Shown here in pieces: positions 6,894 through 17,344 of a stretch of DNA of 32,000 nucleotides; the first letter of the stretch is position 1; every line of letters starts with the position of its first letter. The stretch is from Methylophaga frappieri. Lineage in GTDB: Bacteria; Pseudomonadota; Gammaproteobacteria; Nitrosococcales; Methylophagaceae. A program made the position numbers and the translations under genes. Location of the stretch: NCBI RefSeq assembly GCF_000260965.1, contig NC_017856.1, positions 1,440,001 to 1,472,000 on the forward strand. Direction: 5' to 3'. The notes beneath the pieces were generated by a model, which made no database searches, was not told the origin of the DNA, and saw only the letters and a list, made by a program, of their open reading frames with translations.

Positions 6894-7901
6894 TTACGAA
6901 CCAGTGATGGTATTACCTCTTCTCAATTTTGCTGTAATAGCTTTTGCCACGTTACGTGATGATTTTGCACCTTCCACAGTGCTTTTTCCGGCCTTGAAAG
7001 TAAAACGACCTACCCCTCTCACACTATCTACCATTGAGCCCGTGATACGACGACCTGAGAGCATTGAACTCAAAGAAATACCGTGAGCTAAGCTTGATGC
7101 AATGGAAGTCACTTGCAGCAGAACTAAAATCGCCATAACTGACAGAAATATTGCCGGTATGGCACCTTTAACCTCAACGTTTGATGGTGTTGCCACGGCC
7201 GTATAGGCGGACAAATAGTTACTCAACAAGGTGACGATTAATTTGAGGATGGCACCTACTAACATTGAAATAAAAATAAAATTTAAACACTGCATAATCC
7301 ATGACTCAAACAGCCTTTTCGTCGGTTCGAACATAATCAAAACAATAAAAATTGGTCCGACCGCTAATAAAGCAGATAGAGCTAGTTTTGATAACACCAA
7401 TAGAAACGCCCCCACAATTGTGAGAGCCAAACCTAACAGCCAAATCACGTATGCGGACAACAATAACGATAGATTAGGTATACCCCATTCAGCCTCTAGC
7501 TCAGCCTTGGTCTGAAATGTGGTACCCAAATCCCACATATCCATCAAAATGCTATCCAGAAACCCACCGATACCTGTCGCCCCACCTGTCGTAGATGCTA
7601 AGTTCGCTAAGCTACTTGGTAGGTTAAACAGAAAATCCACAACAAATGAATTGTAATAGCCAAGGTTTACAGCCAAAGAAACAATAAGGGTTAACTTCAC
7701 AACACGATTGAAGCCATCAGTCACCAGCTCAGTCGAGTTTCCAGTGATAACCTTCCATCCCCACAAAGTCACGTAAATCAGCAATAACGTCGTCACAACT
7801 GGCGTAATGGATGCAATGACTGATGTTGCAACGTCATTGATATATGTGGCTAATGTTGTATCAATCTCATCAAACGTTTTTTGTACTAATGTAGCTGCCA
7901 T
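6894..7901 (-). CDS. Type IV secretion system VirB6/TrbL-family polytopic inner-membrane protein
   Basis: 335 aa. The N-terminus TFDEIDTTLATYINDVATSVIASITPVVTTLLLIYVTLWGWKVITG and multiple TM segments are typical of TrbL/VirB6. The gene order J-lipoprotein-L matches IncP trbJ-trbK-trbL and pKM101 traC-eex-traD. Confidence 0.75.
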   Translation of the reverse strand: MAATLVQKTFDEIDTTLATYINDVATSVIASITPVVTTLLLIYVTLWGWKVITGNSTELVTDGFNRVVKLTLIVSLAVNLGYYNSFVVDFLFNLPSSLANLASTTGGATGIGGFLDSILMDMWDLGTTFQTKAELEAEWGIPNLSLLLSAYVIWLLGLALTIVGAFLLVLSKLALSALLAVGPIFIVLIMFEPTKRLFESWIMQCLNFIFISMLVGAILKLIVTLLSNYLSAYTAVATPSNVEVKGAIPAIFLSVMAILVLLQVTSIASSLAHGISLSSMLSGRRITGSMVDSVRGVGRFTFKAGKSTVEGAKSSRNVAKAITAKLRRGNTITGS

Positions 7902-9630: not shown

Positions 9631-9710
9631 CCAAGGCTTACTAGGCAGACATTACATGAAACCAAAATACCTCGTTGCGCAATACGCAACACGCTGATAA
9701 ACTACTAATC

Positions 9711-9989
9711 ATGATTAAGAGCTTCAAACATAAAGGACTTGAGAAGTTTTTCACGACTGGAAGCACAGCCGGTATTCAGGCGAAACACTCAGCAAAGGTT
9801 CGAGATCAACTTGCGTTCTTAGATTCTGCAACCTGTATCGAAGATATGGATTTACCCAGCTTTCGACTGCATGAATTAAAGGGCAAGCTTAAAGGAAAGT
9901 ATTCCATTACTGTTTCAGGGAATTGGCGAATTGTCTTTGAGTTTATAGATGGAGACGCTTACATCGTTAATTATGAGGATTATCACTAA
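9711..9989 (+). CDS. higB: HigB toxin (RelE/ParE superfamily, plasmid maintenance system killer)
   Basis: From ATG 9711: MIKSFKHKGLEKFFTTGSTAGIQAKHSAKVRDQL...GNWRIVFEFIDGDAYIVNYEDYH, the canonical HigB sequence pattern. It overlaps higA by TAATG. Confidence 0.9.
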   Translation: MIKSFKHKGLEKFFTTGSTAGIQAKHSAKVRDQLAFLDSATCIEDMDLPSFRLHELKGKLKGKYSITVSGNWRIVFEFIDGDAYIVNYEDYH

Positions 9990-10327
9990 TGACTTTTCAA
10001 CAACATAACCCGCCCCACGTTGGCGAATTAATTTATCGCACATACATTGAACCATTCGATGATGTATCAGCTAACAAAATTGCTGTTGCATTGGGTGTAT
10101 CGCCAAGCACATTTAACCGTTTATTAAACGGTAAATCTGATTTATCACCTGAAATGGCTGTACGTCTTTCTGCTGTTCTTGGACGTACCGCTGAAAGCTG
10201 GTTACGTCTTCAGGAAAGTTATGATCTATGGCAAGCAAAACAGAAAGTCGATACAAAAAGTCTACATAAAATAGACTTTGCTCAATTCGCTGAACAGGTG
10301 AGAGGAGAGCTACTCGAACCCTACTAA
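9989..10327 (+). CDS. higA: HigA antitoxin (XRE-type HTH)
   Basis: HPGELI-like N-terminus (PPHVGELIYRTYIEP) followed by the HTH ANKIAVALGVSPSTFNRLLNGKSDLSPEMAVRLSAVLG. Confidence 0.9.
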   Translation: MTFQQHNPPHVGELIYRTYIEPFDDVSANKIAVALGVSPSTFNRLLNGKSDLSPEMAVRLSAVLGRTAESWLRLQESYDLWQAKQKVDTKSLHKIDFAQFAEQVRGELLEPY

Positions 10328-10346: not shown

Positions 10347-10673
10347 ATGAAATACAAAGGATATGAAGCTGTTATTAGATACAGTGATGAAGATGAAACC
10401 TTTATCGGTGAAGTGGTCAACACTCGCGATATTTTAGTATTTGACGGTAATGATATTGCCGAAATAACTGACTCATTCCACGCTGTTGTAGATGAGTATT
10501 TACAAGGTTGTGAGGATGAAGGAAAAGCACCTGAAAAGCCATTCTCAGGGCAGTTTGTTATGCGAGTTAAGCCAGAACTGCATAGAGAATTATTCATTAA
10601 AGCTAAAGAATCAGGCAAAAGCCTAAATGCTTTTGTTAGTGAGCAGTTAGACCGGATTGCTCATACATCATAA
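10347..10673 (+). CDS. HicB-family antitoxin-like protein with C-terminal RHH (no hicA nearby)
   Basis: MKYKGYEAVIRYSDEDETFIGEVVNTRDILVFDGNDIAE...FSGQFVMRVKPELHRELFIKAKESGKSLNAFVSEQL is the HicB_lk_antitox pattern. GAAGGTG lies upstream. Confidence 0.7.
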   Translation: MKYKGYEAVIRYSDEDETFIGEVVNTRDILVFDGNDIAEITDSFHAVVDEYLQGCEDEGKAPEKPFSGQFVMRVKPELHRELFIKAKESGKSLNAFVSEQLDRIAHTS

Positions 10674-10686
10674 GGTTTTAAACGTT

Positions 10687-11178
10687 ATGGAAAACGCCAT
10701 TACCAACACAACAAAACAGCATTACATCACGTCGATTGCTGCCCTTAATATCCCGTCACTGGATGGTACGGGAGACTGGCATTTTTCGGATTGTTTTATT
10801 CATCATGGGGACTTTTTACCCCAGCAACACTTAGCCGAAATCGACACAATATCGACCCGTCACCTACTCGGTGACTATGGCATTTTTGAATGCTCAGACA
10901 TTCTTAAAAAATATGGTGCTTCACCATTGCCAGACCAAGCCGAAATCTATGCAGCAAATCACTATCGCGCCGTTGTAGATATGATCTTTGATCTGGTCAA
11001 GAACGGCCAAAGCATCACGGACACGGTGATTTTAGATGACTGGTTCCCCGAAGACTCGGAAAAGCAGACCGTCTACCAGCTGCTAGATAAGCTCAAAGCG
11101 GATTTGACTGATCAACAATGGATGATGATTGACGAATGGAAGACATTATCTAGAGCAATTACTCATCTGAGTATCTGA
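10687..11178 (+). CDS. Hypothetical protein (163 aa)
   Basis: I prefer ATG 10687 over the overlapping TTG 10657. It starts 13 nt after the hicB-like stop. No recognisable motif. Confidence 0.45.
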   Translation: MENAITNTTKQHYITSIAALNIPSLDGTGDWHFSDCFIHHGDFLPQQHLAEIDTISTRHLLGDYGIFECSDILKKYGASPLPDQAEIYAANHYRAVVDMIFDLVKNGQSITDTVILDDWFPEDSEKQTVYQLLDKLKADLTDQQWMMIDEWKTLSRAITHLSI

Positions 11179-11222: not shown

Positions 11223-11912
11223 TCATGAAAAAAAACTAACCAGTCTCTGCCATATAGTTTTCTTGCCTTGCCCGATTGGCTGCGTAGCTACAGACACTTT
11301 CCCGGTGAGGTGCTTAATTACCCTCTCTTCCATATCAGCTAATTCTCTGCTTGATTTATGTGAAAAGTAATTAGCTAACCCCACGAGAGATATGTATACA
11401 GTAGTGAACAATTGAAAAATTACTAACCATCTCCCCCATCCCTCGCCCACTCCAATGGAAGAATCACCTGATGTAGTCATAACAAGAACGCTCAAGTAAA
11501 TGGAATCCATAAATGCATCTACCAGACTCTGGGCTTGAACCAGACTATTTAGGTAACACTCTGATTGCATGCATACTTGTGATATCCCAAAGACAATAGA
11601 ATCACCAGAATCAATCACTGAAGTAAAAAAGTAAGCTGACGCAAACAGCATCACAGTATCAAGATACAACGAGATAATTCCATTGATAGAACTGGCTCTA
11701 TTGTTATAAGTATTAGCAATACTAAGAATCGATATAAAACAGCCTATAAAAAGAATCAATGCAGATAGAAGGATAATTAACTTTATCCAATCTGAGGCTA
11801 TCGGAGTCATTAGACCAATAGCAAATGTCCCAAGGACTAGAAATAGAGTCCACTTGGCTGGCGTGATATTTTTTTTATCCATACTTTCTCTATGTACCAT
11901 GTAACACACCAA
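11223..11912 (-). CDS. Multi-pass membrane protein with a K+-channel-like pore-loop segment (degenerate filter)
   Basis: There are four predicted TM helices. Then SIYLSVLVMTTSGDSSIGVGEGWGRWLVIFQLF aligns by eye with the Ion_trans_2 pore helix/filter (..YFSVVTLTTVGYGD..), but with TTSGDSS in place of TTVGYGD. The start is uncertain (11912 TTG, 11900 or 11882 ATG). Confidence 0.45.
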   Translation of the reverse strand: MVCYMVHRESMDKKNITPAKWTLFLVLGTFAIGLMTPIASDWIKLIILLSALILFIGCFISILSIANTYNNRASSINGIISLYLDTVMLFASAYFFTSVIDSGDSIVFGISQVCMQSECYLNSLVQAQSLVDAFMDSIYLSVLVMTTSGDSSIGVGEGWGRWLVIFQLFTTVYISLVGLANYFSHKSSRELADMEERVIKHLTGKVSVATQPIGQGKKTIWQRLVSFFS

Positions 11913-12218: not shown

Positions 12219-12743
12219 ATGGAGTTTGTAAAATTGGAATGGTTAGAAAAATACGGTGATTTTGACTCACCTGATAAAAGGGAAGAATTTTTCAGGAGCC
12301 ATGTCATAGATATACATCAGGGTGATATGCTGTTTTCCGGCGGCCTAGATCCTTTTATTTTATATGAGATTGAAGATAGCTTTAAACGAGGTAATTTTAT
12401 TGCTTGTATCTTACTTTGCCAACTGGCTATAGAACACTGTTTGGCAAATGAATTCCTCCTAACCGAACATGAATCAATTTGTACAAGAGGATTCGCACAG
12501 CTTATTTCTAAAGCCCGTGAACTCGATATTATTGATAAAGCTATGGAGTCACAGTTAACAGAGTTGCGTCTAATGAGAAACCCTCATGTTCATCCTAGGT
12601 TTGGAGATGGTAAAGGCACTTACATTCGGAGAGTTATAGATAAAGGACTGAATTACAATGAATTACCTGTGGCAGATGGCATTGAAGCTATTAAAATTTT
12701 AGGTTGTTACTTAAACACACCGCGCCTTTATGAATGGCGTTAG
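12219..12743 (+). CDS. HEPN-domain protein (DUF4145-like)
   Basis: 174 aa. It has the paired-helix pattern FKRGNFIACILLCQLAIEHCL ... QLTELRLMRNPHVH with the R-N-x3-H motif. It ends at TAG 12741-12743, which is in frame with the next ORF. Confidence 0.6.
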   Translation: MEFVKLEWLEKYGDFDSPDKREEFFRSHVIDIHQGDMLFSGGLDPFILYEIEDSFKRGNFIACILLCQLAIEHCLANEFLLTEHESICTRGFAQLISKARELDIIDKAMESQLTELRLMRNPHVHPRFGDGKGTYIRRVIDKGLNYNELPVADGIEAIKILGCYLNTPRLYEWR

Positions 12744-13535
12744 TTGCACCATAATGACGAGGATCTTGAATTGTTAATTGATAAAAATTGGTGCCTTCAA
12801 AACGCTTTTGATGAAATCAATCAAGTTTATTATCCTGGGGGATTAACAACTGGCCCCCAACGAAACAGGCTAATTGAAGCTTGGGGTCAGTTAGTTGGGA
12901 AAACAAAAGCTTTGGCTGAACTAGATTTACTGGTTGTTGAATATGGCTCCATCAACAAAATGTCAAAATCTGTCCGAATGAGTCCCCAGTCAATTAAATA
13001 TCTCAGAAATTTTTTTGAATCGTTACCTGATGACTTTGAACAAATCATTCCTATGAAAAGTTATGAATTTATTGAAGGAAGAAAATGCTCACTGGAAGAA
13101 AATCTTTACCATGAATTTAAAGAAGTAAATGGTAACAACCCCACAAAATCTATTCAAAATCTTGTTGATGAATATATTTTGGCATTTTTAAATAGTTCTG
13201 GTGGTAGTATCTTCTGGGGTATTTGCGATGATGGAAAGGTAAAAAGCCTTGAGCTAAACTCTAGAGAAAAAGACGATATTAAAAAAGCTATCTATCAAAA
13301 GATAAATACAATTGAGCCATCGATAGACCCAACTAAAATTGGAATTCACTTCCACAAGGTTTTAGAGGCTACAAATGGTCATGTATTAGAAGTAAATGTG
13401 CCGAAATCAAACTCAACAGGCTTATACTTTAATTCGTCAGGCAACACTTGGGTTAAAGTTAATGGCTGTAAGCAAAAGCTTCAAGGCTTGGCACTACAAG
13501 ATTATATTATTCAACGTATTCAAGATTACGATTAA
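12744..13535 (+). CDS. Schlafen-like AlbA_2 domain protein (possibly the C-terminal part of an amber-interrupted HEPN fusion)
   Basis: The C-terminal half LVDEYILAFLNSSGGSIFWGICDDGKVKSLEL...GHVLEVNVPKS...WVKVNGCKQKL matches the AlbA_2 (Schlafen-group divergent AAA) pattern. The only start is a TTG directly after the upstream TAG. The first in-frame ATG is codon 73. Confidence 0.5.
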   Translation: MHHNDEDLELLIDKNWCLQNAFDEINQVYYPGGLTTGPQRNRLIEAWGQLVGKTKALAELDLLVVEYGSINKMSKSVRMSPQSIKYLRNFFESLPDDFEQIIPMKSYEFIEGRKCSLEENLYHEFKEVNGNNPTKSIQNLVDEYILAFLNSSGGSIFWGICDDGKVKSLELNSREKDDIKKAIYQKINTIEPSIDPTKIGIHFHKVLEATNGHVLEVNVPKSNSTGLYFNSSGNTWVKVNGCKQKLQGLALQDYIIQRIQDYD

Positions 13536-13593: not shown

Positions 13594-14904
13594 CTATATG
13601 TCTTCCTTATATTCAATTTTGTATGGTTGAAGATCCGCTAACCATTTTTTCAATGTTGTAGCACGACGTTTAGCCGTTTTCTCAGATAATGAAGATACGC
13701 AGTTTAAGAGGAACTGCTCAGCTGAATTCGGATCCAATTCACTAATATCTGATTTTTCACAATACCTCATCCACTTAGTGCCACATTCAGAAAGCTCAAA
13801 TAGATTTGCTAAGACTTGATACTTTATATGATTTGATTTCCGAGTTAATAAAAACGATCCTTCGGAAGTAATTTCATTTTTCCTAGTAAGTAACCCTAAC
13901 GCCTTTGCTGCATCAACATAATAACTAACCTGTCTTGGTGAGTTTATGTTTTCAAAATTATCATGTGTCAGTGTTTTACCATGATCCACTAAATCCATAA
14001 CTTTAAGGATGGTTTCTATATCATTTGCTTGAGGAACATCAATTGATGATATGGATGTTAAATTAGTATTTTTTAGCGGATCTAGCTTCTCTTTAACGCT
14101 TTGGTTATCTAGAACAATTTCATTTCCAATATACTTTGGAATAATTTTCACATTTACATTACTAGAAACTATTTTGTTATAAAACTGCTCAATTTGATGA
14201 GTATCAAGTGAATATTTAGAAAGGGCTTCATTAAGTTGTTCAATATTGCCTGCTGTAAAAACATTTTCGAGTACGTCTAAGGCTTTATAGGCAAGCTCTT
14301 CATCATTAGCACCAAGTCTTACATCAACAGAACTAAAGTCTGCTCCCAACTCATACAGGTTGAATACTCGTTTATTGGAAAGATCAAATAAACTCATAGC
14401 TGACTTAAACAGCTCTGTAAACTGTTCTTGAATCGCATTCGAAATATCTGCTGCAACCTTATGTGTTTTTTTGTTTACATTTTTTACGACTAGCCTAAAA
14501 ATCCAACTTTCTTCAGGTGAAGAGCTCCACTTATCGATTGAGTCAACATAAAACCCTTCTGTTGGTAGAAAGTCATCGGGCAAATCTTTTTGTCTAATAA
14601 AAGTTACTTCATCTTGCTCAGGATCTTTTCCAATATAAGCCAAATAGTAACCTCGTTCAGGCTGCTCATATGCTTCTCTAAACGAAATCCGCTTAGCTCT
14701 CAATAGGTTGAGTTTGTTTTTTGATATAGGTAAATAAAGCCAACCCTCTTTATGTACTGGTTCACTTTTTTTATCGCACCAAAAGACAATGTAATAGGTG
14801 CCCATAACCTTATCTTTTGCACAATAAAGAGTTGGCATATCAAAGTATTCATATACTTCAATAATGCTTAAATCTCCTAACTGGGATTTTTTATTTAGCA
14901 ACAT
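13594..14904 (-). CDS. Hypothetical 436-aa protein, third gene of the methyltransferase operon
   Basis: GGTGAG SD 4 nt before the ATG, which lies 9 nt after the upstream stop. No nuclease or NTPase motif is visible. The C-terminal segment SPRQVSYYVDAAKALGLLTRKNEITSEGSFLL looks winged-helix-like. Confidence 0.6.
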   Translation of the reverse strand: MLLNKKSQLGDLSIIEVYEYFDMPTLYCAKDKVMGTYYIVFWCDKKSEPVHKEGWLYLPISKNKLNLLRAKRISFREAYEQPERGYYLAYIGKDPEQDEVTFIRQKDLPDDFLPTEGFYVDSIDKWSSSPEESWIFRLVVKNVNKKTHKVAADISNAIQEQFTELFKSAMSLFDLSNKRVFNLYELGADFSSVDVRLGANDEELAYKALDVLENVFTAGNIEQLNEALSKYSLDTHQIEQFYNKIVSSNVNVKIIPKYIGNEIVLDNQSVKEKLDPLKNTNLTSISSIDVPQANDIETILKVMDLVDHGKTLTHDNFENINSPRQVSYYVDAAKALGLLTRKNEITSEGSFLLTRKSNHIKYQVLANLFELSECGTKWMRYCEKSDISELDPNSAEQFLLNCVSSLSEKTAKRRATTLKKWLADLQPYKIEYKEDI

Positions 14905-14913
14905 TAGCTCACC

Positions 14914-15354
14914 TTATACTGGATGTATTTTTACAACACAGCTCCATGGTTGGGCACTCACATCAAACCAAACTGAAAAATGATTTGGTCTAGTCTCTTT
15001 CATTACCCCTAAGCTTGGCTTTAAATTAACCTCAGCAATTTTCACATTAGCAGTTCTATTCTTATGTATAGCTATGCGCCTACAATTTTTTATATTGTCA
15101 AAGTGCGATGTAGCGAAGGCGTCACATTGTTTATCTTTTGGTAGGTCACCAAACCTTTCAGAAAGCTCACCACATTCATCTCTAAATCCATAGTGTATTT
15201 GGTGTGGGTCATCAACAGTCATCAGAAAGTCATCGTCATCTGGAGGAGAGTTATAAACTATTCTAAAAAGGATACCTGTAGTAGGAATACTACCGGTTAA
15301 AGGGCAGTGTTTCGGCATATCCTGTGCCCAACTATAACTACCTTGTGCTGTCAT
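14914..15354 (-). CDS. Hypothetical 146-aa Cys/His-rich protein, second gene of the methyltransferase operon
   Basis: AAGGA SD, starting 17 nt after the MTase stop. It begins ...HCPLTGSIPTTGILFRIVYNSPPDDDDF and ends ...HFSVWFDV. I cannot name a family. Confidence 0.55.
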   Translation of the reverse strand: MTAQGSYSWAQDMPKHCPLTGSIPTTGILFRIVYNSPPDDDDFLMTVDDPHQIHYGFRDECGELSERFGDLPKDKQCDAFATSHFDNIKNCRRIAIHKNRTANVKIAEVNLKPSLGVMKETRPNHFSVWFDVSAQPWSCVVKIHPV

Positions 15355-15371
15355 AAACCATCCTTATTTTT

Positions 15372-16055
15372 CTAATGACTAAGCTCATTATATAAACGTT
15401 CTTTAGCAACACTTACTGCTTCCTCAGCTATGTCTACTCCTAAGAAGCGTCTATGATTTCGAATTGCAGCGACACCAAACGATCCCGCCCCCATGAATGG
15501 ATCCACTATAAGCTCACCCTCATCTGAACTTTGACCAATCAAAATTTCAGCTAATTCTACTGGCTTTTCAGTTGGATATCCTCTATAAACTCTAGGGACC
15601 TCTAGAATATCTGGAATAGAAAAGTTTTTTAACTTCCTTTTTCCTTTTTCAAAAAACAGGATAAATTCATATCTTGCACGATAGTGATAGCCCATTCCTA
15701 TCTTTTTTTTGTCCCAAATTAGTGGTTTCCAAAACTTAAAACCTACTTTTTCAGCTATAGGTTTTACAATAAATGCAGTCTCTTGATCACAAAATAAATA
15801 AAAGTGGGAGTTTTTTTTGAGAACTCGATATATTTCAATAAATAATTGTTCAAAAGATGAGTTAGGAAAAATAGTAAACCATGCGTTGCTTGATGCCTTG
15901 CTATTTTTCAAGCGTGTTGTTGTTCCAATTGCTCTGTGTTTTTCTAATGACTCATATGGTGGATCAGTGATAAACAAATCAACAGACTCGTCAGCCAAAG
16001 CTCCTAAAAAATCAAGTGCATCTGCACATTTTAAGTCAAAATTCGTTATTTCCAT
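15372..16055 (-). CDS. DNA methyltransferase, beta-class N6-adenine/N4-cytosine (DPPY type)
   Basis: Motif IV LFITDPPYES precedes motif I LIVDPFMGAGSFGVAA, which is the beta-class order. I prefer ATG 16055 (MEITNFDL). The ORF track's TTG 16091 lies inside a hexamer repeat. Confidence 0.8.
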   Translation of the reverse strand: MEITNFDLKCADALDFLGALADESVDLFITDPPYESLEKHRAIGTTTRLKNSKASSNAWFTIFPNSSFEQLFIEIYRVLKKNSHFYLFCDQETAFIVKPIAEKVGFKFWKPLIWDKKKIGMGYHYRARYEFILFFEKGKRKLKNFSIPDILEVPRVYRGYPTEKPVELAEILIGQSSDEGELIVDPFMGAGSFGVAAIRNHRRFLGVDIAEEAVSVAKERLYNELSH

Positions 16056-16152
16056 TTTTATAATTTGAGGAAGACTCAACCTCAACCTCAACTTCCAACT
16101 TTAATAAGAGCAAAGGTCGGAAGCTTATCATTTTTAGTGCACTACGTTTACA

Positions 16153-17139
16153 TTACTTAGTTAACCTTCGTGCTAAATCCTCCGCTTTTAAGTGGGTATA
16201 ACGCTTTAACATCATCAAATCCTTATGGCCAGTTATGGATGAAACTTCCATTATGTTCAATCCCATCTCAAAAAATCGACTTGTAGCTTCATGCCGTAAA
16301 TCATGGAAACGTAAGTTTGCGATATTGGCACATTTACAACAACGTTCAAATGCATGTGTTATAGAATCAGCACGCATTGAAAACACTTTACCGTTAATAT
16401 TTCGTGGGATCTCAGCAAGGATATTTAATGCCGATGTAGAAAGTGGGACTGTTCTGCTATCACCATTCTTTGTATCTGGGAGAGTTACAACTCTCTTGGC
16501 TATATCAATGTTTTCCCAGCGCAGTTTGGCAATTTCTCCTCTACGCATGGCAGTCTCAATTGCAAATCGAATAATGGCTGATATTTCACCACCGTATTTT
16601 TTTGCTGCATCAAGAATCCGTTCCTGTTCATTCCCTTCTAACCTACGCTCCCTACCTCGTTTTGGCTGAGGTGGTACAGTGATCCTGTCTACAGGATTGC
16701 CATGAGGCAAATAAATGCCCCATTCCTTGGAGGCAATGGTCAGGATCCGTTTAATACACAACAACTCTTTTCTAACGGTTTCCGGCTTTACTCTTTTAAG
16801 CCTAGTGTCTCTGTAATCTGCCAACACACTAGGGGTGATGCTAATGACAGCATATTCCCCAATGCAATTGCTGATACAACGAATCATCGATCCCATACTG
16901 ACAGCAGACTTTTTCGAGGGGAGTATTTCAGTAATATAACGTTTAGTTAATTGCTGGACAGTGGTGGTTTCTGCAAGAGTGCTTGAAATGAACATTTTGT
17001 TGTCCATTTGAGCTTCAACTTGAGTAGCCCACTTTTGGGCCAGAGATTTGTTTCTGAATGTTTTGGTTTGGACTGGGTAGCCTTTTTTGCGGACTTTTGC
17101 CTGCCATTGGCCTTCCCCACGCTTTATATAACTTGCCAT
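16153..17139 (-). CDS. Tyrosine site-specific integrase
   Basis: 328 aa. The N-terminus is KRGEGQWQAKVRKKGYPVQTKTFRNKSLAQKWATQVE. The catalytic region carries RRGEIAKLRW, RFHDLRHEATSRF and GHKDLMMLKRYTH (R..H-x-x-R..Y). It is transcribed away from the adjacent tRNA 3' end. Confidence 0.9.
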   Translation of the reverse strand: MASYIKRGEGQWQAKVRKKGYPVQTKTFRNKSLAQKWATQVEAQMDNKMFISSTLAETTTVQQLTKRYITEILPSKKSAVSMGSMIRCISNCIGEYAVISITPSVLADYRDTRLKRVKPETVRKELLCIKRILTIASKEWGIYLPHGNPVDRITVPPQPKRGRERRLEGNEQERILDAAKKYGGEISAIIRFAIETAMRRGEIAKLRWENIDIAKRVVTLPDTKNGDSRTVPLSTSALNILAEIPRNINGKVFSMRADSITHAFERCCKCANIANLRFHDLRHEATSRFFEMGLNIMEVSSITGHKDLMMLKRYTHLKAEDLARRLTK

Positions 17140-17267: not shown

Positions 17268-17344
17268 TGGCGTCCCCGGCAGGATTCGAACCTGCGACCT
17301 TACCCTTAGGAGGGGGACGCTCTATCCAGCTGAGCTACGGGGAC
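17268..17344 (-). tRNA. tRNA-Arg (anticodon CCT), CCA encoded
   Basis: The reverse complement is GTCCCCGTAGCTCAGCTGGATAGAGCGTCCCCCTCCTAAGGGTAAGGTCGCAGGTTCGAATCCTGCCGGGGACGCCA. It folds as a cloverleaf. The acceptor is GTCCCCG/CGGGGAC, the D stem GCTC/GAGC, the T arm GCAGG-TTCGAAT-CCTGC and the anticodon loop CTCCTAA. The anticodon stem has one C-T mismatch. Confidence 0.9.

Follow-up and report, generated by a model that had tools for sequence, protein, structure and literature searches.

A Candidate Methylase-Coupled Variant of PD-T4-10

The operon described here occupies positions 13594–16091 on the minus strand of a 32,000-nucleotide stretch of Methylophaga frappieri DNA (contig NC_017856.1, positions 1,440,001–1,472,000; hereafter the window). 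We interpret it as a methylase-coupled variant of the PD-T4-10 toxin–antitoxin/abortive-infection family rather than as a classical restriction–modification system, a reading built on sequence comparison to which we assign a probability of about one half. It encodes three proteins.

15372–16091, minus strand: gene 1, the methylase (239 residues), a beta-class N6_N4 DNA methyltransferase
14914–15354, minus strand: gene 2, the small protein A (146 residues), classed by its profile relatives as a divergent PD-T4-10_A family member
13594–14904, minus strand: gene 3, the large protein B (436 residues), composed of DUF6575, a linker region, and DUF7226

Profile comparisons place the A/B pair as a divergent homologue of the A/B pair of PD-T4-10. 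They also assign to B a domain that belongs to restriction–modification proteins, and across genomes the presence of an adjacent methylase tracks this domain. The window locus is defense-related and tied to methylation, and it is not demonstrably a restriction–modification system.

PD-T4-10 was described in E. coli ECOR65 by Vassallo et al. 2022 (PMC9519451) as two overlapping open reading frames (ORFs) with no predicted function, which protect against T-even phages. Its B component is a DUF6575 protein and the only one of the two that is toxic when they are expressed singly; A fully neutralizes B and was not deletable, and deletion of B abolishes resistance to T4, with abortive infection as the mode of defense (PMC9519451). 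The prototype clone is a 1.9-kb fragment that holds A and B only, without a methylase. In the literature searched, no mechanistic work on PD-T4-10 after that of Vassallo et al. was found, and DUF6575 and PD-T4-10 are treated in detail only there.

The genes of the window operon are tightly spaced. Gene 1 and gene 2 are separated by 17 nt (aaaaatAAGGAtggttt-ATG), with AAGGA ahead of gene 2, and gene 2 and gene 3 by 9 nt (GGTGAGcta-ATG), with GGTGAG ahead of gene 3. These coordinates and spacings agree with an earlier sequence-only reading of this DNA, which had noticed three minus-strand genes with gaps of 17 and 9 nt, each with a Shine–Dalgarno sequence, beside an integrase. The gene 3 product is 100% identical to M. 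frappieri Q7C_1437. All three proteins have strongly significant homologues, whose genes keep this order across many unrelated genomes, so that the three-gene arrangement is not a matter of chance.

Domain Composition of the Large Protein B

Protein B was divided into two conserved parts, whose positions in the window are as follows.

14284–14901, minus strand: DUF6575 module of gene 3 (residues 2–207), beta-rich, common to the PD-T4-10_B toxin
13603–14052, minus strand: DUF7226 domain of gene 3 (residues 285–434), winged-helix plus helical bundle

In the Pfam search, DUF6575 was matched over residues 2–207 at 2.7e-21 and DUF7226 over residues 322–422 at 7.1e-8, while the PADLOC model PD-T4-10_B was matched at 1.3e-9 over residues 10–121 only. 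Full-length homologues of the same architecture numbered 32, at 26–46% identity. An AlphaFold2 model with a mean predicted local distance difference test (pLDDT) score of 87.6 consisted of a beta-rich N-terminal part, a mixed middle, and a helical C-terminal region, within which residues 323–346 formed a helix followed by a beta-hairpin. Together with the Pfam match and with AAA_assoc_C matches on DUF7226 homologues, this model bears out the winged-helix-looking segment (residues 322–346) that had been proposed by eye. Three motifs are conserved in the domain, namely PQANDI (residues 291–296), RQxxYYxxA (residues 324–332), and TAKRRATTLxxW (residues 410–421).

The invariant polar residues of gene 3 cluster in this C-terminal domain, and the DUF6575 part has essentially none: no invariant acidic residue, Lys, or His, and no residue of catalytic type, was found there, and the homologues from Pantoea and Rahnella have lost Glu16. 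As stated earlier from inspection by eye, gene 3 shows no P-loop, PD-(D/E)XK, HNH, GIY-YIG, or PLD family, here in searches of Pfam, NCBIfam, and PADLOC. A profile of the large family found nothing among PDB sequences, and Foldseek of the full-length model against the PDB returned noise without a meaningful match. For gene 2 and gene 3 alike, profiles, PDB sequence comparison, and Foldseek gave no nuclease or NTPase fold or family. The proposal of a novel module therefore holds in that neither partner can be assigned to a known class of nuclease or NTPase, and does not hold in that both have relatives, PD-T4-10_A for one and DUF6575/PD-T4-10_B for the other.

DUF7226 as a Module of Restriction–Modification Proteins

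A scan of one genome per species yielded 16 full-length relatives of gene 3 and 12 proteins in which the C-terminal domain alone was shared. The latter fell into four groups. The first consists of proteins of ~430 residues with the order DUF6996-DUF6997-DUF7226, which are encoded beside Dam-family or N6_N4 methylases; their matches to the PADLOC family REase_II (PDLC03513), a REBASE-type Type II restriction-enzyme family, span a large part or the whole of the protein. The second comprises Dam-family methylases fused to DUF7226, and the third is a single 728-residue fusion of Dam, DUF6996, DUF6997, and DUF7226. The fourth is one protein with an unrecognized N-terminus joined to DUF7226, encoded beside a methylase of the window family (1e-117). 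The Dam/DUF7226 fusions and the DUF6996-DUF6997-DUF7226 proteins were located in L031, L033, L039, L041 and in L032, L034–L037, L040. In the fourth-group locus (L030:3663–6432, Myxococcota), the methylase is followed by a different small ORF and then by the 434-residue X-DUF7226 protein, which looks like a further architecture of methylase, small protein, and X-DUF7226. For the DUF6996-DUF6997-DUF7226 proteins, neither an NCBIfam name (two tested) nor a PDB relative (one tested) was obtained, and a literature search on DUF7226, DUF6996, and DUF6997 found nothing.

When the C-terminal domains of the gene 3 type were compared by hhalign with those of the REase_II proteins (PDLC03513) and Dam fusions, the probability was 99.9% (E 6e-32), and the same three motifs were present in both sets of domains. 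On this profile evidence, DUF7226 is classed as a module of restriction–modification proteins, found repeatedly next to adenine methylases or in fusion with them. DNA binding may be its likeliest role, because of its predicted winged-helix shape and its partners. The N-terminus of B was unrelated by hhalign to the DUF6996/DUF6997 part of the restriction enzymes, which is probably the catalytic part of the PDLC03513 family.

These results bear on a first alternative, in which the locus is a classical Type II restriction–modification system with a new two-subunit endonuclease: B would recognize DNA via DUF7226, and A or DUF6575 would cut unmethylated DNA. Such an assignment is encouraged by the tightly spaced, methylase-led operon, by the place of DUF7226 as the C-terminal domain of the REase_II family in PADLOC, and by the invariant polar residues of A described below. 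However, no nuclease family or fold was detected in A or B, the DUF6575 region lacks invariant acidic, Lys, and His residues, and the N-terminus of B has no similarity to DUF6996/DUF6997. The sequence-only reading had named a confident match to a Type II restriction enzyme as the result that would make this an ordinary restriction–modification system; what was found is a partial match, in which DUF7226 is common to REase_II PDLC03513, but DUF6996/DUF6997 are absent and the protein as a whole gives no match.

The Small Protein A

Direct profile scans of Pfam, NCBIfam, PADLOC, and PHROGs gave no match for gene 2, and a word-indexed homologue search with the single 146-residue protein recovered only itself; the family surfaced only with profiles. 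The genes upstream of gene 3 homologues encode proteins of ~130–140 residues that align with gene 2, and a profile of 11 proteins of this small family (A3) retrieved 1,681 clusters at E ≤1e-3 from 1.84 billion representatives. Almost all members found with this profile are stand-alone proteins of 120–145 residues. Three apparent fusions (P0088, P0093, and P0117) look like mis-called N-terminal extensions and match no local profiles; they were set aside as uninformative. The PADLOC model PD-T4-10_A was matched by 96 of 146 sampled gene 2 relatives (best 1.5e-14), and a hidden Markov model built from the matching relatives alone, with gene 2 and its close homologues left out, scored gene 2 at 5.5e-30. 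Because of these two results, the case for homology between gene 2 and PD-T4-10_A appears strong, though transitive. The 146 relatives matched no credible Pfam family, giving only two isolated matches at E ~0.009. No stretch of the A family was conserved enough for back-translation, and phage genomes yielded no tblastn match to the A consensus.

Among ~150 diverse relatives, Arg31, Asp42, Phe43, Ser83, Gly116, His125, and Trp129 are near-invariant. One segment of gene 2 is peculiar to its lineage.

15139–15219, minus strand: lineage-specific insert in gene 2 (residues 46–72), a gap in homologues, with pLDDT <50 in the AlphaFold2 model

Gene 2 had been described as Cys/His-rich on the basis of four short strings. 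These strings are indeed present, but the richness is specific to the lineage and is not conserved: much of it resides in the Methylophaga-specific insert, which is predicted to be disordered and wholly contains the string HQIHYGFRDECGE. The cysteines are not conserved even in close homologues, and His125 alone among the Cys and His residues comes close to invariance in the family as a whole. The data therefore support no conserved metal-binding site, and the idea that gene 2 carries a zinc finger or a metal site was rejected.

Outside the insert, the AlphaFold2 model of gene 2, which rests on an 11-sequence alignment, has a core with pLDDT ~85–94. Foldseek against the PDB placed Tpt1/KptA (from three archaea), a RES toxin, ParT, cholera toxin A, and CNFy at the top, and against BFVD it returned DarT first (probability 0.96), followed by Arr and RNA 2'-phosphotransferase. 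All of these matches are weak; those to the ADP-ribosyltransferase fold had E of 0.02–3 and TM-scores of 0.31–0.44, compared with 0.1–0.2 for unrelated matches. The model places Arg31 within the first strand and Ser83 within the second, and a later strand opens with His125. The canonical ADP-ribosyltransferase triad (H-Y-E or R-S-E) was not recovered in the family, since there is no conserved Glu and the third conserved polar residue is His125. Neither the small-family profile nor a 146-sequence profile found anything among PDB sequences, and no sequence-level link to the Pfam ADP-ribosyltransferase families was detected. The predicted ADP-ribosyltransferase-like fold is weakly but consistently indicated, and we treat it as a lead, not a result.

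This lead raises another explanation, that A is the active effector, a minimal ADP-ribosyltransferase of the DarT/Tpt1/Arr type, which B would target to the unmethylated invader or which would inactivate B by modification in the manner of a type VII toxin–antitoxin system. The ADP-ribosyltransferase-fold proteins at the top of two independent structure libraries (PDB and BFVD) and the near-invariance of Arg31, Ser83, and His125 across ~150 diverse relatives are what such an enzyme would be expected to give. Nevertheless, we consider it very unlikely, as none of the fold matches is better than E 0.02 and all come from a model of an 11-sequence alignment, no sequence links A to solved structures or Pfam ADP-ribosyltransferase families, and the catalytic Glu is not conserved. 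Furthermore, the toxicity of the prototype resided in B alone, and A acted as the antitoxin (PMC9519451).

Co-Occurrence of Methylase, A, and B

The recurrence of the three genes elsewhere had been set beforehand as a test by the sequence-only reading, and the trio does recur in other genomes. After removal of duplicates at 90% identity, our census contained 27 distinct DUF6575-DUF7226 loci. The small gene A lies directly upstream of B in 25 of them, with tight spacing and often overlapping ORFs; the two loci without A are one disrupted by IS21 and one frameshifted at a contig edge. In the former (L005/L020:194–4250, a Rheinheimera metagenome-assembled genome), IS21 (transposase and IstB) has taken the place of the sequence ahead of an intact B gene. 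This B, present without A or methylase, is presumably tolerated or silent alone, which bears on the toxicity of the variant B.

A methylase of the window family or of the Dam family was found within ~1.5 kb in 19 of the 27 loci, in three arrangements. In the first, a methylase of the window N6_N4 family lies upstream on the same strand, sometimes with a Dam-family gene ahead of it; in the second, which defines a second subtype, a Dam-family (D12 class) gene lies downstream of the pair; and in the third, seen in two loci, the methylases are divergent N6_N4 members. Methylase, A, and B follow one another on a single strand, with short gaps between them, in Methylophaga, Catenovulum, Colwellia, Glaciecola, Rheinheimera, and several metagenome-assembled genomes. 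Across these systems the methylases are 67–69% identical, compared with 33–37% for B and 24–30% for A. For A/B pairs that lack DUF7226, none of four (on Oscillatoria, Bacillus, Rhodococcus, and Arthrobacter plasmids) had such a methylase within 4–5 kb, so that adjacency in 19/27 DUF7226-type loci versus 0/4 DUF7226-less ones gave a one-sided hypergeometric p of ~0.016. Methylase adjacency thus tracks DUF7226. The A/B pair is the invariant core, and the methylase is a frequent, non-random, and dispensable accessory tied to DUF7226.

The same data extend the comparison with a Type II restriction–modification system. Two methylase classes alternate beside the pair, as in isoschizomer systems, and in L001–L003 and L050 the order of Dam-family methylase, N6_N4 methylase, and pair resembles the DpnII cassette, which is ordered dpnM-dpnA-dpnB. 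However, the pair persists without an adjacent methylase in 8/27 loci, and the PD-T4-10 prototype works from its 1.9-kb methylase-free clone, in which A alone neutralizes B. When these points are added to the missing nuclease signatures, we judge a two-subunit restriction endonuclease to be quite unlikely.

Several hosts of methylase-less loci are gammaproteobacteria that carry Dam, and in such hosts Dam or another host methylase could stand in for the missing one; methylase-bearing loci also occur in Dam-carrying gammaproteobacterial hosts. In Rheinheimera sp. EpRS3 (L029:4868–8811), the methylase–A–B operon is located beside the host dam in an apparent aroB-damX-dam-rpe region, with gene identities assigned by eye on the basis of N-terminal sequence. 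The ORF for Dam there matches only positions 2–180 of the 271-position E. coli-type Dam model and is apparently truncated or recombined.

Two further conserved proteins accompany the pair. A membrane protein of 170–190 residues is transcribed divergently beside A/B in 8/27 loci (L019, L021, L022, L024, L025, L026, L028, and L043), most of which have no methylase; two of the eight also carry a window-type methylase upstream in the operon. Examples are L024:4988–5506 and L043:6714–7268, both on the minus strand, and the motif is ITSFHRY..K.FD.DH.WGF...GYNWDVF.KKLE.LS. Two members tested matched no Pfam family, and the protein may be an alternative accessory or effector. A distant blastn search with the Pantoea locus of A, B, and membrane protein found no match in 5,426 complete E. 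coli genomes. The second is a highly conserved protein of 96–100 residues in 5/27 loci, belonging to the Dam-family subtype and including one with no detectable methylase (L006:7299–7595, L007:7293–7595, L008:7290–7580, L014:7377–7673, and L052:6295–6591). It sits between B and the downstream Dam-family methylase, shows the motif W.R.N.Y.DIADMIDE...TRRNWWD...LRAAQ.RQG, and has no Pfam family (one member tested).

Plasmid-borne A/B pairs of the same arrangement were found in cyanobacteria, Bacillus, actinobacteria, and enterobacteria, and the neighbors of homologous loci include AbiJ, TIR, Type I restriction–modification, an EAD1 protein, a PLD-helicase, and prophages.

The Gene 1 Methylase

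Gene 1 matched PF01555 (N6_N4_Mtase) at 4.8e-35 and PADLOC MTase_II at 2.3e-40. Its DPPY motif (residues 43–46, nt 15954–15965) is N-terminal to the FxGxG motif DPFMGAGS (residues 197–204), an order that makes it a beta-class enzyme, as had been recognized from the letters alone. In amino-methyltransferases, DPPY rather than SPPY suggests N6-adenine specificity, and gene 1 is probably an N6-adenine methyltransferase. Where aligned, it is 67–69% identical to the methylases that precede homologous pairs in L001–L004, L011, and L012. Its PDB relatives include CcrM, M.MboIIA, a DpnA-annotated methylase, and N4-cytosine methylases; they match at only ~1e-12, so that the target site is not readable from them. 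A TTGAGG hexamer in nearly three tandem copies (16075–16092, minus strand) overlaps the annotated TTG start of gene 1. Because homologues show no N-terminal conservation at this position, translation may really begin at the ATG at 16055 and not at the annotated TTG (16091).

The methylase gave no tblastn match against phage genomes. In E. coli pKMi029_4 (L047, 4.9 kb), a methylase of the window type (60–70% identity in this plasmid group) is the only cargo in the PLSDB gene table that serves neither replication nor mobilization, and Klebsiella and Raoultella plasmids of identical size carry the same methylase gene. The spread of this methylase on plasmids and phage-plasmids suggests a widely useful and conserved methylation specificity.

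Proposed Mode of Action

A working model for the methylase-coupled PD-T4-10 variant can be drawn from these features. The methylase would mark the host DNA, and through DUF7226 B would sense DNA or the methylation it carries. The A:B complex would remain quiet as long as DNA is methylated; unmethylated or rapidly replicating invader DNA would recruit or activate it, and this activation would release a toxic or abortive activity or block the invader directly. B would act as a sensor or scaffold, because it has no conserved catalytic residues. Enzymatic chemistry, if any, would most likely reside in A, given its nearly invariant Arg/Asp/Ser/His set and its ADP-ribosyltransferase-like predicted fold, and this is the weakest part of the argument. 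A might act on B, following a type VII toxin–antitoxin logic that fits its antitoxin behavior, or on nucleic acid. In such a scheme the effector would be methylation-protected, as had been proposed for this locus.

Several observations weigh against this interpretation. With regard to the pair itself, gene 2 gave no direct match to the PADLOC PD-T4-10_A model at E ≤1, being too divergent for it, and only positions 15–121 of the 353-position PD-T4-10_B model (~107 positions, ~30%) align to gene 3. DUF7226 could bind protein or regulate transcription instead of binding DNA. As for the methylase, the 8/27 loci that have none nearby, five of them with the conserved membrane protein, imply that methylation is not obligatory for the core pair. 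The window-type methylase also occurs alone, at 60–73% identity on 4.9-kb Col plasmids of E. coli, Klebsiella, and Raoultella, and likewise on Aeromonas and Edwardsiella phage-plasmids and in Salinivibrio, and this solitary occurrence implies that it can act independently.

These last observations are also what would be expected if the methylase were independent cargo, that is, an orphan anti-restriction methylase of mobile elements that stands beside a self-sufficient A/B pair without being coupled to it. The existence of A/B pairs without methylases and the fact that the E. coli prototype needs none point in the same direction. The methylase–A–B order with short gaps nevertheless recurs widely, and a second, unrelated methylase class, the Dam family, fills the same role in the other subtype. 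Moreover, methylase adjacency tracks DUF7226, a domain that is itself independently fused or adjacent to methylases. An uncoupled methylase is hence rather unlikely in our estimate.

The methylase-coupled PD-T4-10 reading admits a more specific form, which is speculative and improbable as it stands. The locus would then be a nuclease-free restriction-like system, in which DUF7226 would read the state of the motif of the operon methylase and B would deploy A, a minimal ADP-ribosyltransferase-fold enzyme with an unusual Arg-Ser-His site, on the unmethylated invader; A would chemically modify nucleic acid, like DarT, or a protein target, thereby blocking the invader or triggering abortive infection. 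If true, this would reveal how the entire PD-T4-10 family works.

Experiments have validated PD-T4-10 as an anti-phage system, one without informative domains, and the present variant gives mechanistic leads for it. Within one large family branch, the toxin-like B appears to end in a domain of restriction enzymes and Dam-type methylases, and the repeated wiring of this DUF7226 branch to methylases suggests that the signal being sensed is DNA together with its methylation state. The 'antitoxin' A, in turn, is part of a large family (~1,700 clusters) whose invariant Arg/Asp/Ser/His set is enzyme-like and whose predicted fold resembles that of ADP-ribosyltransferases. Functional context is thereby gained for DUF7226, for DUF6575, and for a small-protein family that has no Pfam model, and loci are flagged for which the PD-T4-10 models of PADLOC give only a weak match or none.

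Comparison with Known Defense Systems

The window locus resembles PD-T4-10 (PDLC04023, PDLC04024) in consisting of two tightly coupled, co-directional genes, the small A first and the larger B second, with a B that begins with DUF6575 and an A assigned to the same sequence family, and in the location of the pair on mobile elements and defense islands. It differs in the DUF7226 C-terminus of B, the divergence of A, and the methylase within the operon, in place of which sister loci have a Dam-family methylase or a ~100-residue or membrane protein. Toxicity of B, neutralization by A, and abortive infection are known for the E. coli prototype, whereas the window pair is known by homology. With A unmatched and B only partly matched, the standard rules of defense finders may miss this locus.

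With the REase_II PDLC03513 systems it shares the homologous C-terminal DUF7226 (hhalign 99.9%), an adenine-type methylase nearby, and a large protein of ~430 residues. However, in the window B the place of DUF6996/DUF6997 is taken by DUF6575, a module lacking any catalytic signature; B is accompanied by a second, small protein; and the methylase is dispensable in ~30% of loci of the window type.

The two-gene, toxin–antitoxin-like logic of abortive infection recalls DarTG, ParST, and RES-Xre, and the predicted fold of A resembles the minimal fold of DarT, Tpt1, and Arr. Unlike these ADP-ribosyltransferase modules, with which it has no sequence homology, the window locus has neither a macrodomain nor an Xre antitoxin; the ADP-ribosyltransferase-like component is the antitoxin in the PD-T4-10 prototype, and the catalytic Glu is missing. 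BREX and MADS-like systems likewise combine a DNA methylase with partners that have no recognizable nuclease, and by analogy with them, discrimination of self from non-self by methylation is likely. In contrast to these systems, the window locus consists of three small genes without PglZ, BrxC, BrxL, an ATPase, or a phosphatase, its methylase is a small beta-class enzyme and not PglX, and no components are homologous.

Genomic Context in the Window

The operon is flanked on its upstream side by features of an integrated element.

16153–17139, minus strand: tyrosine integrase of the island (PF00589 at 1.8e-29), directly upstream of the operon
17268–17344, minus strand: tRNA-Arg(CCT), probable integration site of the island (ARAGORN)

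The left part of the island contains RepA_C (192–1067), TrbL/VirB6 (6894–7901), and a protein of a type IV secretion system family (PF07996; 8148–8867), which together imply an integrated conjugative element or plasmid that continues past the left edge of the window. The operon is cargo on this mobile element at tRNA-Arg, whose far end is beyond the window; no second att site, sought as a repeat of the tRNA 3'-end of ≥14 nt, was present inside the 32,000 nt. The G+C content is 33–38% over the operon and 46–50% in the flanking core genes to the right. With the integrase, the tRNA, and toxin–antitoxin and Abi genes nearby, the earlier picture of one conserved operon in a mobile defense island is sustained.

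The same island encodes a HigB-like toxin (9675–9989) followed by a helix-turn-helix antitoxin (HigA; 9989–10327), and a HicB-family protein (10347–10673) whose gene overlaps that of a protein (10657–11178) matching PADLOC AbiEi at 6.8e-54. No AbiEii partner of this AbiEi-like gene was evident. A 229-residue membrane protein of the window (11223–11912) was considered as a counterpart of the membrane protein of sister loci and proved unrelated. Finally, a HEPN-like/AlbA_2 pair is encoded on the plus strand at 12219–13535 and is convergent with gene 3, just as the sequence-only reading had described it.

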